From NCBI GenBank assembly GCA_050302075.1, contig JBNLAH010000001.1:342380-406379 (forward strand): a DNA stretch of 64,000 bases. Reading direction: 5' to 3'. Below are positions 145-9,764 of the stretch, in pieces. The notes beneath the pieces were generated by a model. It ran no database searches, was not told the DNA's origin, and saw only the letters and a program-made list of their open reading frames with translations. Made by a program: the position numbers and the translations under genes. The number at the start of each line of letters is the position of its first letter. Position 1 is the first letter of the stretch. This DNA comes from Parachlamydiales bacterium (GTDB lineage: Bacteria; Chlamydiota; Chlamydiia; Chlamydiales; SM23-39).

Positions 145-197
145 TTAAAGATGTGGGGCAACCAGGACTTGAACCCGGGACCAACGGATTATGAGTC
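145..197 (-). repeat. Distal att site: duplicated 3' portion of tRNA(CAT) plus 9 nt of downstream sequence
   Basis: TTAAAGATGTGGGGCAACCAGGACTTGAACCCGGGACCAACGGATTATGAGTC is identical to 9712-9764; identity stops just past the anticodon loop. Confidence 0.95.
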
Positions 198-314
198 TTA
201 CCTATTTTGGCTACTAATGCCTATGATCCATAGTTAACAATCATATAATTAGCTTTTTAGGTTAAAAAAAATACTAATACTAATTGTTTGTTGCTGATCA
301 TTTTTACTAATTTC

Positions 315-333
315 TGTGCCACTAGTGTGCCAC
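315..333 (+). repeat. Putative integrase arm-type binding sites (tandem TGTGCCAC, 11-bp period)
   Basis: TGTGCC at 315 and 326; the same paired motif recurs near the other end of the element. Confidence 0.7.
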
Positions 334-422
334 TTTTTTTTTCTAAGTAACCGTAAATTTAGTGAAAGTTTCAGAATAAATTTAGATATTTTCCACTAAG
401 TCATTTTTCCTAAAAAAATATT

Positions 423-452
423 TTGACAGTTTCCAAGAAATGAGAATAATAT
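423..452 (+). promoter_or_regulatory. Candidate sigma70/sigma66-type promoter for the island replication operon
   Basis: Perfect TTGACA at 423-428; AATAAT/TAATAT -10 candidates 16-18 bp downstream; ~60 bp upstream of ORF 515. Confidence 0.45.
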
Positions 453-514
453 TTTTATGTAACAGACAGTCAGCAACTGTTTTAAGTGTAAAAAATATTA
501 TTTAGAGAATCGAG

Positions 515-709
515 ATGAAGTTTTGTAGTTTAAACTATTTTTTAAAGAAAAGAGAAGATACATGGCCAACCGAAAGAGCAATGCGTTGGATTATTTTTAA
601 TCGAGAATTTAATGGAGCAAAACGCTTTTTGAGAAAAGTTTCAGGAAGATGGTTTATTGATGAGGTGGAATTCGAAAATTGGATAAATGAGGACGGAAAT
701 GATAAGTAA
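515..709 (+). CDS. Small basic DNA-binding protein, excisionase/AlpA-like (putative recombination directionality factor)
   Basis: 64 aa, basic, RKVSGRWFIDEVEFENWI winged-helix-like C-terminus; first gene inside the att end. Confidence 0.6.
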   Translation: MKFCSLNYFLKKREDTWPTERAMRWIIFNREFNGAKRFLRKVSGRWFIDEVEFENWINEDGNDK

Positions 710-920
710 TGAAAACAATAAAATTGAAAAGCTTTTGAATATTGCTAGCAGATTCTCAAATAGTTCAAATTCTGATTTACAAAGTTTAGGACGTTACATT
801 GAAGATGAAATTCGAACTTTAGATGAATATGAAGAGTCTGATGAAAAAATACGTTTCTTGGATGAAATTAGATATCGTGTAACTAAAAAATATAAAGAAA
901 TTACTGGAGATGGATTATGA
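687..920 (+). CDS. Hypothetical protein (island); may start at ATG 699
   Basis: Overlaps the upstream ORF and overlaps the downstream ORF via ATGA, consistent with an operon. Confidence 0.55.
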   Translation: MRTEMISNENNKIEKLLNIASRFSNSSNSDLQSLGRYIEDEIRTLDEYEESDEKIRFLDEIRYRVTKKYKEITGDGL

Positions 921-6762: not shown

Positions 6763-7326
6763 ATGGGTAAAGGTTATAAAAAAAATATTCAAAGCTACTG
6801 TAAGGGGCCAAAAATTAGTTTTGAGATTAAAGATAATAAATTTATTGATGCTAAGCTTGATGGCAAAAAGATCGATCTTTACAAAGATCACAAATCTGGA
6901 GAAATTTTTCTTAAAAGACTTTGCGAATTAACACAACAGAACGAGCGAGATTTAGCTTTCTTTTCATTAGAACATGCTCGCATGGCATTATGTAAAGATG
7001 AATCAGAAAAGCCTCGAACATTCATTTTAAATTCTCTTCAGCAGCTACAGCCAAAAGACTCTGTAGAGTTTTCATTAATTGAGCAGTTTTTAGTATTGCA
7101 TGATCAAGGAATAAATAGGTTAGCTAGAGCTAATCACTCTGATAATATTAGCAACTCAAGCCTTCAAATAAACATGGCTATTAAACTTTTAAGACTATCT
7201 CAAGAAACACTTTCTACCTTGATGAAATATCGAAATAAGGGGCAACAGCAAGTGTTTGTAACACATGTAAATAAAGGCGGCAAAGCAATTGTAGGTAACG
7301 TAAGCGGGAATGGGGGGAAGGAATGA
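6763..7326 (+). CDS. Conserved-looking hypothetical protein, partner of HGGxSTG protein (ORF open from 6754)
   Basis: PKDSVE...Q...H and KYRNKGQQQVFVTHVNKGGKAIVGNV motifs recalled from mobile-element hypotheticals; ATGA overlap with the next gene. Confidence 0.7.
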   Translation: MGKGYKKNIQSYCKGPKISFEIKDNKFIDAKLDGKKIDLYKDHKSGEIFLKRLCELTQQNERDLAFFSLEHARMALCKDESEKPRTFILNSLQQLQPKDSVEFSLIEQFLVLHDQGINRLARANHSDNISNSSLQINMAIKLLRLSQETLSTLMKYRNKGQQQVFVTHVNKGGKAIVGNVSGNGGKE

Positions 7327-7586
7327 AAAATGAAGTAGAACCTCTTGTCCTCTGTGGGGCGAAGAGCAAAAGGACTGGTTTATCTTGTAGACAACCATCT
7401 ATGAAAAATGGGCGATGTAGATTGCATGGGGGAAAATCTACAGGGCCTAAAACTCTAGAAGGTCTACTTAGAATTAAGAAATCAAAAACTAAGCATTCCT
7501 ATTACTCAAAAGAAGCTATTCAAGAAAGAAAAAATATTCGCAATCTTATAAATAAGTCTAAATTACACGTTGAGAAATGTTTATAA
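7323..7586 (+). CDS. HGGxSTG-domain protein (Cys3-His putative Zn-binding, basic)
   Basis: CGAKSKRTGLSCRQPSMKNGRCRLHGGKSTGPKT signature. Confidence 0.88.
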   Translation: MKNEVEPLVLCGAKSKRTGLSCRQPSMKNGRCRLHGGKSTGPKTLEGLLRIKKSKTKHSYYSKEAIQERKNIRNLINKSKLHVEKCL

Positions 7587-8382
7587 AAACAGGCATGGTT
7601 TCTAAAAGAACTTTAGGAGTAATTTTTGTGTAGGTCTTAAGTTTTCTGCAAGCTCTATCAAAGTAAGAAATTAAGTGATTTCTTTTAATATAATCTCCAT
7701 GACTTGTTTGAAAGACTAGTTCATTATCTTTATAACCTTTTCTAGTCTTAAGATTTATTAAATTATCAATTATATGCCTTGGATACTTTATCAAATGCTT
7801 TTGAAAATTAATGCAGCTCATATTATTGCTAACTTGGTGCCATTTAAGATTTAGAACCTCATCTAGTGTTGGAGCTCCAAAGTATAAAACTTTTGCTAAT
7901 AGAGACTCTCTTTCTGGCAATAATAAACTAAATTCAACAAAAAGTTCATAATTTAACTTTCTAAAAGCGCACTGCTGCTTATCTGGATCGTAAGGTAGTT
8001 GAAATATTCCTAGTGTTTTTTCATGCAAAAAAGAAAAAAAACTGATGATATTAGCAACAATTTTTTCTTGAATAGAACGGTCTAATTTTGAATTAGTTCT
8101 TATTTCTTCTATGATGAGATGAAAACCACCTGATCTCAGTTCTCCTATAGTTTTTAGATATCCGAATTTATTAATAAAATTGATAAGAGTTTCGCTCATT
8201 AGATCAAAATCATTTGTTTTTGTTTTTGTTTCATTACTCCATAAAGTTAAAATTGGAAGTATATCTAGTTCATATAGTTTGTTTTCAAACTTGCCTCTAG
8301 ATTCATAAAGATCTTGGGAAAGTTTATTAAAAAGTTTCATTTGCGATGGAGTATCTTTCATATCATCCGAAAATTTTTTCAT
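7558..8382 (-). CDS. Degenerate tyrosine-recombinase-like protein resembling chlamydial plasmid Pgp7/Pgp8
   Basis: ISFFSFLHEKTLG, RESLLAKVLYFGAPTLDEVLNL, LVFQTSHG and KITPKVL follow the recombinase fold; catalytic Arg and HxxR are replaced and the Tyr region is absent. Confidence 0.65.
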   Translation of the reverse strand: MKKFSDDMKDTPSQMKLFNKLSQDLYESRGKFENKLYELDILPILTLWSNETKTKTNDFDLMSETLINFINKFGYLKTIGELRSGGFHLIIEEIRTNSKLDRSIQEKIVANIISFFSFLHEKTLGIFQLPYDPDKQQCAFRKLNYELFVEFSLLLPERESLLAKVLYFGAPTLDEVLNLKWHQVSNNMSCINFQKHLIKYPRHIIDNLINLKTRKGYKDNELVFQTSHGDYIKRNHLISYFDRACRKLKTYTKITPKVLLETMPVFINISQRVI

Positions 8383-9421
8383 TCATACTTCTTAAAACTG
8401 TTGAAGTGTGTGACTCACTTAAGTGAGCATATTTTTTAGACATTTGTATGCTCTTATGGCCTAAAATTTCTGCAATTTCAGTCAGTGAGGCTCCATTCAT
8501 AGCTAAGTAACTAGCGCAGGAATGCCTTAAATCATGCCAACGGAAATCTTCAATATTTGCATTTTTAATGGCGGTTTCCCATGCGGACCTAAGATCTAAA
8601 GGTTTTTTATTATTTTTACTAGGAAATACTAATGTTGAAGTTAAAGGTCTGTTTCTTTCATGTTTTTTTAACATTGTAAGAGCTAAGTGTGTTAATGGAA
8701 CTGATCTAGTTTCTCCATTTTTTGTTTTATAAAGAACAATTCTACAATTTTTTAAATCTACATTAGACCATGTTAAGTTCATTAGCTCGCTTTTTCTTAT
8801 TCCTGTACTCAAAGCAATGACGACTGCTAGATAAAGATAAGAATTTTTGCTTTTTTTACACTCTATTAATAAAGCTTCTCTCTCTATATCGCTTAAATAT
8901 CTTGATCTGCCTTTTGGTTCTTTAGGTTTTGTAATCTTTTGAACAGGGTTATCCTCAATCCATTGATATTCTTTGACCGCTATACTTAATACATGAGATA
9001 GAGCAGCTAAGTATCTAACTACGGTTGATGGTGACTTTTTAGTACCTTTAGGTGTAATCTCTTGGCTCAGCTTATCTTTATATTCTGAAATTAAGGCAGG
9101 AGTTATATCAGCTAAAAGATATTTTCCTATTTTTTGTTTCCACCAGGCCAATTGATATCTTTTATCTTTAGCATTATTGGGATAATTAGGTAAAAAATCA
9201 GCAGAATATCTTTCAATTAGATCATTTAAAGTGTGTTTTTTTGCCTCTGAAGTTTTAAAATGACGCCCTTCCCTTATGGCTGCTTCGGTCTGCTGCGCCC
9301 ATCTTTTCGCGTCATGTCTTTTTTCAAAAGTAGCTGTTTGAGCTGGATATCCTTTTATTCTTACCTGAACTCTGTAAGTTTTTTTTCCGTTTTTAGTAAG
9401 TCTCTTTTGTATATTGGCCAT
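8363..9421 (-). CDS. Phage-type tyrosine integrase
   Basis: N-terminal arm-binding region (YRVQVRIKG...ATF); full catalytic set TGIRKSE, KTKNG, WHDLRH, LGHKS and KYAH. Confidence 0.96.
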   Translation of the reverse strand: MANIQKRLTKNGKKTYRVQVRIKGYPAQTATFEKRHDAKRWAQQTEAAIREGRHFKTSEAKKHTLNDLIERYSADFLPNYPNNAKDKRYQLAWWKQKIGKYLLADITPALISEYKDKLSQEITPKGTKKSPSTVVRYLAALSHVLSIAVKEYQWIEDNPVQKITKPKEPKGRSRYLSDIEREALLIECKKSKNSYLYLAVVIALSTGIRKSELMNLTWSNVDLKNCRIVLYKTKNGETRSVPLTHLALTMLKKHERNRPLTSTLVFPSKNNKKPLDLRSAWETAIKNANIEDFRWHDLRHSCASYLAMNGASLTEIAEILGHKSIQMSKKYAHLSESHTSTVLRSMNEKIFG

Positions 9422-9549
9422 AAGTATTCACAAATAAATATAATATACAAAAATATGCGAAAATTTGCAAACTCCGGATTTTAAATCAGATGGTTTTTTT
9501 ATTTTTTGTCACTAGTAGTTAAGAGGTTATTACATGTAAAAAATGTTAA

Positions 9550-9646
9550 TGGCACATTTAAGGCACACAAAAGTTGCTTTTTTTGCAAATTTTATAGAAT
9601 TTTTGCGTTAATGAAAGTTTCTGACTAAGTGTGCCGTTTGTGTGCC
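9550..9646. repeat. Putative integrase arm-type sites near the tRNA-proximal att
   Basis: Inverted pair GGCACA at 9551 and 9562; direct pair GTGTGCC at 9629 and 9640; each pair has an 11-bp period. Confidence 0.7.
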
Positions 9647-9711
9647 AAATCACAAAAAGAATGTAGGTGGAAGTTAGGAGTTCTGATTATAAATAACTGA
9701 AATTTAAAAGA

Positions 9712-9764
9712 TTAAAGATGTGGGGCAACCAGGACTTGAACCCGGGACCAACGGATTATGAGTC
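9712..9764 (-). repeat. tRNA-proximal att site (53-bp direct repeat)
   Basis: Identical to 145-197. Confidence 0.95.

Follow-up and report, generated by a model that had tools for sequence, protein, structure and literature searches.

The DNA analyzed here, which we call the window, is a stretch of 64,000 nucleotides (nt) from a Parachlamydiales bacterium (contig JBNLAH010000001.1, positions 342,380 to 406,379; G000:C1:342380-406379) whose assembly comprises 1.84 Mb in 89 contigs. Near its left end it carries a small element enclosed by two perfect 53-nt direct repeats (145-197 and 9712-9764; spacing 9567 nt), the right one of which consists of the 3′ 45 nt of a tRNA-Met(CAT) gene and 8 nt past the gene. 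We assign this element, which is intact, to a family of small integrative islands of Chlamydiota that lack capsid genes and occupy tRNA or tmRNA genes; its most likely means of spread is to borrow a phage, a helper dependence that we infer from the genes described below. Its genes and sites are listed in window coordinates; "no family" refers to searches of Pfam, PHROGs and NCBIfam, and lengths of proteins are given in amino acids (aa).

145-197, no strand: attL, left copy of the 53-nt repeat, a partial tRNA-Met 3′ end, 100% identical to 9712-9764
315-334, plus strand: left-arm boxes, two TGTGCCACT boxes 11 nt apart, candidate arm-type integrase sites or iterons, judged from position
423-450, plus strand: promoter-like site (TTGACA, 16 nt, AATAAT; 11/12) preceding the rightward replication operon
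515-709, plus strand: 64-aa protein, no family, at the position of AlpA/Xis-like helix-turn-helix (HTH) proteins in related islands
687-920, plus strand: 77-aa acidic protein, no family, overlapping the genes on both sides
917-2776, plus strand: primase-helicase, 619 aa, with an N-terminal helical region, a Toprim-like core, a RepA/DnaB-like AAA_25 ATPase and a C-terminal HTH
2845-4854, plus strand: family-A DNA polymerase with 3′-5′ exonuclease (PolA), 669 aa, DNA_pol_A 7e-77 and DNA_pol_A_exo1 7e-21 in Pfam
4909-6642, minus strand: ankyrin cargo protein, 577 aa, with a hydrophobic N-terminal half and C-terminal ankyrin repeats (Ank_2 7e-31), inserted between PolA and the 190-aa gene
6754-7326, plus strand: 190-aa protein, no family, preceding the HGG gene
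7323-7586, plus strand: 87-aa HGGxSTG (HGG) protein, NF041373 HGG_STG at 53.8 bits (cut-off 29), its start overlapping the 190-aa stop by 4 nt
7558-8382, minus strand: 274-aa integrase-like protein (phrog_1 integrase 7e-4, residues 175-256), with a 20-nt overlap with the integrase gene end
8363-9421, minus strand: tyrosine integrase (Phage_integrase 6e-34 in Pfam), adjoining the tRNA
9550-9647, no strand: right-arm boxes, two inverted TGTGCC-type (9550-9568) and two direct (9629-9647)
9712-9764, no strand: attR, right repeat copy, within the tRNA gene
9720-9794, minus strand: tRNA-Met(CAT), the integration target

Coding sequence makes up 91% of the 9,514 nt enclosed by the repeats, and the G+C content of this interval is 31.5%, compared with 35.0% in the remaining window. 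All nine open reading frames (ORFs) are intact; four of them form a rightward set of overlapping or abutting genes (515-709, 687-920, 917-2776 and 2845-4854), and the integrase gene (8363-9421) and the 274-aa gene (7558-8382) form a leftward pair. The element is present in a single copy in the host assembly, and homologues of its genes are labelled "Chlamydiae bacterium" in their source records. Searches of the nine ORFs against Pfam, PHROGs and NCBIfam revealed no capsid, portal, tail, relaxase or type IV secretion system (T4SS) family and, in a test for a prophage, no structural or lysis gene or fragment; the four unknown ORFs sum to 628 aa, which is too small for a virion. The original prediction, made from the sequence alone, of a compact tRNA-integrated element that has perfect 53-bp att repeats, encodes a primase-helicase and a family-A polymerase of its own and lacks capsid, portal, tail, relaxase and T4SS genes is thereby borne out, as are the complete integrase, the intact polymerase motifs A, B and C and the HGGxSTG protein that it named.

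The integrase shows all catalytic residues in its sequence (R209, K234, H296, R299, H322 and Y331). By eye, the 274-aa protein lacks them, with a proline at the position of the first arginine and K..L in place of H-x-x-R; it shares 26% identity with the integrase of a related island (L035), and integrase and integrase-like genes also lie in tandem in L135, L042 and L035. The 64-aa protein is 30% identical to the ORF that precedes the primase-helicase in L132. It had been called excisionase-like, for which its position, as in relatives, speaks; an identity as excisionase was rejected, with no family match, an E value of 0.066 when hhalign sets it against the HTH_17 proteins that take its place in relatives, and no Pfam match for five homologues at E ≤ 1.

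TGTGCC boxes occur as pairs, 11-12 nt apart, at 315/326, 9550/9562 and 9630/9641, and five of the 12 TGTGCCR matches in the window (6.1 expected for the whole window) fall into the two arms, which are 79% complementary to each other. Circularization would put the box pairs around attP within ~350 nt, and the boxes are candidates for arm-type recombinase sites, which they fit as well as iterons. Tandem Repeats Finder returned only short, low-score rows and no convincing iteron array, and the iteron cluster originally claimed is reduced to these three box pairs. Promoter-like sites across the region were not above chance (38 vs 43.6 expected), and a promoter and terminator scan gave counts no higher than those of shuffled sequences.

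The primase-helicase matches AAA_25 in Pfam (1.2e-22) and phrog_239, DNA primase/helicase (1e-26), and carries a Walker A (G363-K366-T367) and a Walker B (D464) motif. Pfam gives no Toprim match in the 619-aa protein; an EGxxD (E217/D221) and a DxD motif (D260/D262) can be seen by eye, and homologues that are 34-37% identical over the Toprim-like region carry Toprim or CHC2 zinc-ribbon Pfam matches. The homologue in L135 is 46% identical over the helicase half only, and its own N-terminal half matches Toprim_3 (9.8e-11). The earlier assignment as a TOPRIM primase-helicase therefore stands for the ATPase and, through motifs and homologues, for the primase core, though not by a Pfam match of the protein itself. 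The primase part resembles "P4 family" primases (24-26% identity), whereas the helicase part does not. A link of the protein to plasmids was rejected, as it matches only 10 plasmid records, none of them chlamydial.

In PolA the residues of Exo I (D108/E110), Exo III (Y238/D242), motif A (D443/E448), motif B (R492/K496/Y504/G505) and motif C (H617-D618-E619) are invariant among seven relatives. Among solved structures, PDB entry 8jrb, for which we found no paper, scores best (272 bits), followed by the Plasmodium apicoplast PREX polymerase (233-238) and Klenow (159). PolA shares 39% identity with a Methanococcoides vulcani enzyme, and its named relatives are "bifunctional 3′-5′ exonuclease/DNA polymerase" proteins of cyanobacteria and Firmicutes; NCBIfam PRK14975.1-3 scores 441.6 bits, under its cut-off of 640. 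Motif B reads ...F500-G-L-I-Y504-G, with phenylalanine at position 3. By score ranking, without a tree, PolA appears to belong to the Aquificae-like/apicoplast-PREX subfamily (cluster 8, cd08639), which it resembles in scoring higher with PREX than with Klenow and in having an archaeal member of that cluster among its named homologues. In the classification of Czernecki et al. (2023, PMC10201439), as far as its text describes it, cluster 8 ("Hot Spring 1") is Aquificae-like, includes the apicoplast PREX polymerase, which replicates the apicoplast genome, and names Aquificae, cyanobacteria, Verrucomicrobia, Planctomycetota and Nitrospirae; its prokaryotic role is listed as unknown, and fusions to primases are known. 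"Chlamydia" and "integrase" have 0 occurrences in that text. The host's own Pol I is separate and full-length (contig C5, 899-aa frame, 30% identity to PolA). A scan of the genome collection with the single PolA protein gave only an irrelevant 29-residue match.

To place the element we surveyed a sample of 400 genomes of the phylum, from which 14 20-kb loci around primase-helicase genes and eight around PolA relatives were fetched. The primase-helicase has matches in 58 genomes at E ≤ 0.001 and in 33 at E ≤ 1e-40. Integrases in these islands are 33-45% identical to that of the element and usually adjoin tRNA-Met, -Thr, -Ser, -Phe or tmRNA genes. Six of 14 related loci with a tRNA or tmRNA have att repeats, i.e., a second copy of the 3′ end (43-53 nt, 88-100% identity), and these bound islands of 9.1, 10.3, 11.3, 11.7, 12.6 and 14.5 kb at tRNA-Met (three), tRNA-Ser (two) and tmRNA. 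The 72 ORFs of these six relatives include no match to capsid, portal, tail or relaxase Pfam families. The gene order common to the relatives is integrase, second integrase-like gene, small protein, primase(-helicase), optional PolA, 190-aa/HGGxSTG pair or terminase genes, and variable cargo. The cargo includes PvuII and type I restriction-modification systems, a KwaB-like protein, a kinase/PP2C/VWA set, methyltransferases and a MerR/TipAS regulator. No tRNA was found on nine further related loci, no att repeat of at least 10 nt for the PolA-bearing element of L038, and no terminal overlap in any of five short relative contigs that would mark a circular form.

Element-type PolA (E ≤ 1e-60) was detected in 11 of the 400 genomes, with in-frame stops in two copies (G107 and G346); seven further matches, at E near 1e-51, are host Pol I-sized frames. 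A primase lies directly upstream of PolA as a separate gene in eight of the 11 loci and is fused to it in two, and the remaining locus is a 3.2-kb contig and too short to tell. The upstream primases are of different types: Toprim-AAA_25 in the window, an NrS-1-type PrimPol-AAA_25 in L035, and PrimPol-DUF3987. The two fusion proteins (L036:5002-7971 of G075, 989 aa; L040:7918-10878 of G373, 986 aa) combine a T7-type primase zinc ribbon, Toprim, 3′-5′ exonuclease and a PREX-like PolA without a helicase domain, in line with the primase fusions described for cluster 8. Genes following the fusions encode GNAT acetyltransferases (L036 and L040) and, in L040, also APH-type kinases and an ABC exporter. 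Because PolA always travels with a primase, whatever the primase type, we read the two as a replisome cassette. The polymerase is nevertheless an optional add-on, the majority of the primase-helicase family being without PolA, and the original description as a PolA-based kind of element is not supported: the polymerase (11/400 genomes, vs 33/400 for the primase-helicase) does not define the family.

That most family members replicate without PolA would also suit a polymerase that serves defence, repair or phage interference rather than replication, on an island that is chiefly a platform for defence and cargo. PADLOC matches PolA with a model tied to defence reverse transcriptases ("RTasPolA", 7e-38), relatives carry restriction-modification systems and the KwaB-like gene, and the prokaryotic role of the subfamily is, as noted above, called unknown in the text of PMC10201439. 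A defence reverse-transcriptase system was rejected, as the element has no reverse transcriptase gene and the PADLOC match is explained by PolA homology alone. The position of PolA, directly after or fused to primases of three types (Toprim-AAA_25, PrimPol-DUF3987 and the Toprim fusion), is as expected for a replisome module, and the related PREX enzyme is a replicative one; we regard a role outside replication as highly unlikely.

PolA is of phage type according to PHROGs (phrog_17, 2e-99). Its identity to proteins of GenBank phages is at most 34%, and 407 relatives were found in IMG/VR contigs; the five annotated loci among them are phage replication modules with exonuclease, single-strand binding protein, endolysin or tail-fibre genes. 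These matches, the two broken PolA copies among 11, a locus (L037) in which PolA adjoins a large terminase subunit (TerL) gene at the contig end, and a truly decayed island with a broken integrase beside the element raise the question of a decaying remnant of a temperate tailed phage that kept its integrase and replication genes, lost its structural genes by deletion and is immobile. Yet the nine intact ORFs, the high coding density and the perfect repeats speak against a remnant, and six att-bounded relatives in a narrow range of sizes, at different tRNAs and without a structural-gene Pfam match, would be unexpected from independent deletions. In addition, the 80 IMG/VR loci retained in the PolA scan all lack the 190-aa, HGG and integrase genes. 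Such a remnant thus seems a quite improbable source of the element, and the possibility raised with the original prediction, that homologous gene sets exist solely within larger complete prophages, which would make the element a deletion remnant, was checked and is answered by the recurrence of capsid-less, att-bounded relatives of 9-14.5 kb in the phylum.

The second conserved part of the element is the 190-aa/HGG gene pair. The HGG protein has an invariant Cys3-His knuckle (C11-C22-C32-H35) and two weak matches to PHROGs of small terminase subunit (TerS) type (E 0.0011 and 0.0084). The AlphaFold2 model of the 190-aa protein (pLDDT 78.7) consists of a beta-hairpin and five helices, and its best Foldseek match in PDB is the DnaG C-terminal domain at E 0.69; in Atlas the protein falls into unnamed clusters only. 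The HGG model has a pLDDT of 81.9 and a pTM of 0.35. Co-folding of the two proteins gave a score of 0.02, which weighs neither way. A limited literature search found no paper on the HGGxSTG motif.

A metagenome scan with an HGG alignment yielded 569 relatives; context was counted in the 29 kept loci of at least 5 kb (among loci L157-L236), and genes were annotated in 16. In 24 of the 29, with G+C contents of 33-64%, a 190-aa homologue lies directly upstream of the HGG gene. The 16 annotated loci show integrases and primase-helicases of several types before the pair (Toprim_3 or Prim-Pol with DUF3987, Toprim-AAA_25, DnaB, SNF2-type and DUF927). The pair is a widespread companion of integrase and primase-helicase islands. 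The element's own PolA was matched in none of the 29 loci, and Pfam found no DNA_pol_A in the 81 ORFs of the 16.

Comparison of the slot after the replication genes links the pair to terminases. The pair follows PolA in the window (behind the ankyrin insert), L036, L038, L039 and L043, and comes straight after the primase-helicase in L128 and L129. The same slot is taken by a TerS-like protein (phrog_2538, 3e-8 to 4e-11) in L132, L041 and L040, and by TerS together with TerL (phrog_2, 1e-32 to 1e-34) in L035 and L135. The latter element (L135:1441-14076, G044:C1) spans 12.6 kb between perfect 53-nt tRNA-Ser repeats and encodes two integrases, a Toprim-AAA_25 primase-helicase, TerS, TerL, an HNH nuclease, a DnaB-like helicase and a transposase; no capsid gene was found in it. 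On the basis of gene position, the content of the slot, be it the pair or terminase genes, points to phage-dependent packaging. The original prediction had assumed a helper for transfer; we judge this outside dependence right, and the phage link appears closer than was assumed, with some PolA relatives beside terminase genes.

A candidate helper may be present in the same assembly. The ends of contig C8 (43,112 nt, 31.1% G+C) overlap by 77 nt; the contig encodes a terminase large subunit (PF17289, 30.4 bits) and is probably a complete tailed-phage genome binned with the chlamydial genome. The TerL proteins of L035 and L135 are 64% identical to each other and 27-28% to the C8 terminase. It is possible that C8 is a helper phage of this kind.

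The slot also bears on whether a phage is needed at all. An integrative plasmid-like island could replicate after excision and spread by vesicles, DNA uptake or a conjugative element in trans, or be inherited vertically only. The element has no terminase gene recognizable by Pfam or PHROGs, its 190-aa/HGG pair has no assigned function, L035 encodes a ParA-type partition ATPase beside its integrase, primase-helicase and PolA, and concatemers in a vesicle fraction as well as plasmid-like satellites have been described for marine elements (PMC9618062, in the part of that paper on which we draw). Sister elements, however, hold TerS, or TerS, TerL and an HNH nuclease, in the very slot of the pair, which is sensible only with phage heads. 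Moreover, neither the element nor the 72 ORFs of the six relatives include a relaxase, oriT protein or coupling protein, and the five short relative contigs do not close into circles, so that we consider spread without a phage unlikely.

The tRNA-Met gene has been hit at least twice, because there are three att copies and a second, broken integrase. The third copy (52/53) lies at G000:C1:339079-339131, 3.3 kb left of the window start, and between it and attL is a decayed 3.4-kb island (C1:339079-342523; L005 13700-17144) with a YhcG/DUF1016 nuclease, a methyltransferase, a 121-aa ORF and a frame-broken integrase that is 39% identical to that of the element. In the nearest relative, G306, the flanking DUF1207 and P-type ATPase genes are 86% and 87% identical, and the order DUF1207, MFS, tRNA-Met ... 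ATPase is kept; its interval of 5.8 kb contains a single degenerate att-like copy, the nine element proteins all lack a match in this genome at E ≤ 1e-5, and G306 is absent from the genomes matched by the primase-helicase and PolA scans of the phylum. G158 and G046 also lack the element at this site (0/3 relatives carry it), and because of its absence from all three we regard the element as variable between lineages. A fully empty tRNA-Met site was seen in none of them.

Taken together, we lean towards a satellite-like island that would excise, replicate with its own primase-helicase and PREX-type polymerase, and be packaged by a tailed phage. The integrase would excise a 9,567-bp circle, perhaps aided by the dead integrase-like protein and the 64-aa protein, and the six TGTGCC boxes would come to flank attP after excision. 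Primase-helicase and PolA might then act as a two-protein T7/PREX-style replisome that amplifies the circle without host Pol III; we propose a shared replisome because the primase and PolA genes always lie together. The 190-aa/HGGxSTG pair may mark the DNA for packaging by a tailed helper phage, a role proposed because the pair holds the slot of TerS, or of TerS and TerL, in sister elements. The ankyrin protein would be cargo and a candidate host-interaction factor. A broader proposal, which we put forward tentatively and hold to be possible rather than probable, is an undescribed chlamydial phage-satellite system with a PREX-type two-protein replisome (fused in some members), packaged by tailed chlamydial phages through a new 190-aa/HGGxSTG recognition module that is spread over many phyla.

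Several observations weigh against phage-borne spread of a self-replicating island. The element has no recognizable TerS, and the packaging role of the pair is drawn from gene position and the two weak PHROG matches given above; the models of both proteins match no solved fold in PDB at E ≤ 0.001. Between C8 and the element we found neither protein similarity (best E 0.13) nor a common stretch of DNA. The closest IMG/VR relatives of PolA sit in ordinary phage replication modules, and L037, with PolA directly beside TerL, may belong to a complete prophage. Eight of the 14 related loci tested gave no att repeat, and the prevalence of family members without a polymerase means that it is not needed for the family's life cycle. 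Finally, depth was read from assembled contigs of three runs of one study, two of which contain next to none of the stretch; the third, probably the source of the DNA, gave 24.1 for the element contig (9,573 nt) and 24.0-24.6 for its flanks, i.e., no marked over-replication in the sample; the decayed island (contig of 3,451 nt) had a depth of 28.2. Contigs break at all three att copies, and the 53-nt repeat exceeds the assembler word length, which makes attP and attB junctions indistinguishable; no excised circle or empty site was seen in contigs that could neither show nor exclude them. Likewise, an "opposite strands" contig joint (L127, 1630 to 14668) connects copies of the att site or tRNA and has no diagnostic value. 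The earlier description as self-replicating is a prediction from the element's own replication genes, and the depth check lends it no support.

Among known mobile elements, P4-like satellites and phage-inducible chromosomal islands (PICIs) resemble the element in size, an integrase at att, a small gene at the AlpA position, a primase-helicase replicase, the lack of virion genes and, in some sister elements, TerS. The core set of P4-like satellites, in the form used by SatelliteFinder, consists of Psu, Sid, Delta and an alpha-type primase-helicase. Pfam and PHROGs searches of the element found no Psu, Sid, Delta, capsid-size or Ppi-type gene, so that the P4-like set is lacking, and the P4 alpha helicase is of SF3 type, unlike the RepA/DnaB-like AAA_25 helicase of the element, which in addition has a polymerase. 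PICIs are defined by TerS or capsid-redirecting genes together with a helper-responsive repressor; in the element the two weak HGG matches are the sole sign of TerS and no repressor was recognized, and sister elements do have TerS. Of the features of phage satellites in a broad sense, which also comprise induction and packaging by a helper phage, the element shows an integrase with att sites, a primase-helicase of its own and no full virion gene set. Integrative conjugative or mobilizable elements differ in that no relaxase, coupling protein or T4SS was found in the element or, by Pfam, in the 72 ORFs of its relatives. Pipolins and casposons likewise integrate and bring their own DNA polymerase, of family B in contrast to family A here.

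Closer precedents exist for a family-A polymerase, among which we count those annotated as COG0749, presumably the family-A enzyme. VEIMEs, integrative elements of marine bacteria, were found as concatemers in virus particles (Eppley et al. 2022, PMC9618062). According to the parts of that paper on which we draw, some members of VEIME module 6 carry small terminases and DNA polymerase genes, and COG0749 is given for 117 virion-encapsidated satellites in Dataset S5 (module 6, 78; module 8, 13) and for 40% of module 6 in Dataset S6. As far as described there, module 6 is like the chlamydial element in being small, integrase-bearing and without capsid genes, and in pairing a polymerase with packaging-slot genes; VEIMEs, however, are defined by their presence in particles and have marine plankton hosts, not Chlamydiota. 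Many tRNA-integrated tycheposons carry "polymerases, primases, helicases", as stated in a preprint (10.1101/2020.12.28.424599). On that description, tycheposons of Prochlorococcus share with the element the tRNA target, the tyrosine recombinase, cargo and tandem pile-up at the tRNA, which is seen here in the three att copies and the decayed second island; the host phylum differs, and the likeness is one of placement and description.

Staphylococcal cassette chromosome (SCC) elements use serine recombinases. SCCmec (Bebel et al. 2020, as cited in PMC10201439) encodes a PolA-like CCPol together with a helicase (CCPol-MP-Cch2), and is similar in being an integrative element with a family-A-type polymerase and a helicase. 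From the same description, CCPol is without most of the exonuclease domain, primes with MP and lies near another PolA cluster, in contrast to the exonuclease-proficient arrangement of motifs in the element's PolA. For the combination of genes, which the original prediction did not recognize as a named class, VEIMEs with COG0749, tycheposon polymerases and CCPol are precedents, and with these the statement that satellites use the host polymerase was too strong. Satellites that bring a family-A polymerase have already been published, as a general idea, for marine bacteria, so that what is new here is the lineage and the module rather than the principle. A limited literature search found nothing in print on such islands in chlamydiae and no work joining an integrative element, a family A DNA polymerase and a primase; a plasmid-centred survey (PMC7846284) has 0 occurrences of "primase" and "tRNA".

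The islands recur across the phylum without capsids, some of them with terminases, which implies gene movement among chlamydiae by tailed phages and the parasites of these phages. Chlamydiae have an obligate intracellular life and, to our knowledge, few mobile elements are known in them. Genes so moved would include restriction systems and ankyrin-type candidate host-interaction proteins. Replication of a small mobile element is a plausible job for a PolA subfamily whose prokaryotic role is listed as unknown, and, if the broader satellite system exists, that role would be answered in concrete terms and apicoplast-like primase-polymerase modules would reside on mobile elements of an intracellular bacterial lineage. 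The 190-aa/HGGxSTG genes stand out as a conserved two-gene module and as an experimental target.

Further observations concern the cargo and the surroundings of the element. The genome contains two paralogues of the ankyrin protein, in contigs C2 (C2:52724-53866; 44% identity, residues 1-422) and C4 (C4:210102-210722), and the cargo gene is one mobile member of a small host paralogous family that shares the hydrophobic N-terminal half. YhcG-type nucleases, as in the decayed island, recur in two related islands, L130 and L041, and L156 has one as a pseudogene. Immediately to the left of the third att copy (L005:13289-13519), fragments of DUF1016_N and of an MFS transporter are fused in a 76-aa ORF, and across the tRNA there is an intact MFS gene (window 9907-11130); the chimeric ORF may be debris of an older rearrangement at the hotspot. 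A further 51 nt with 94% identity to the att repeat (G000:C2:231727-231777) correspond either to another tRNA-Met gene or to a further island boundary.

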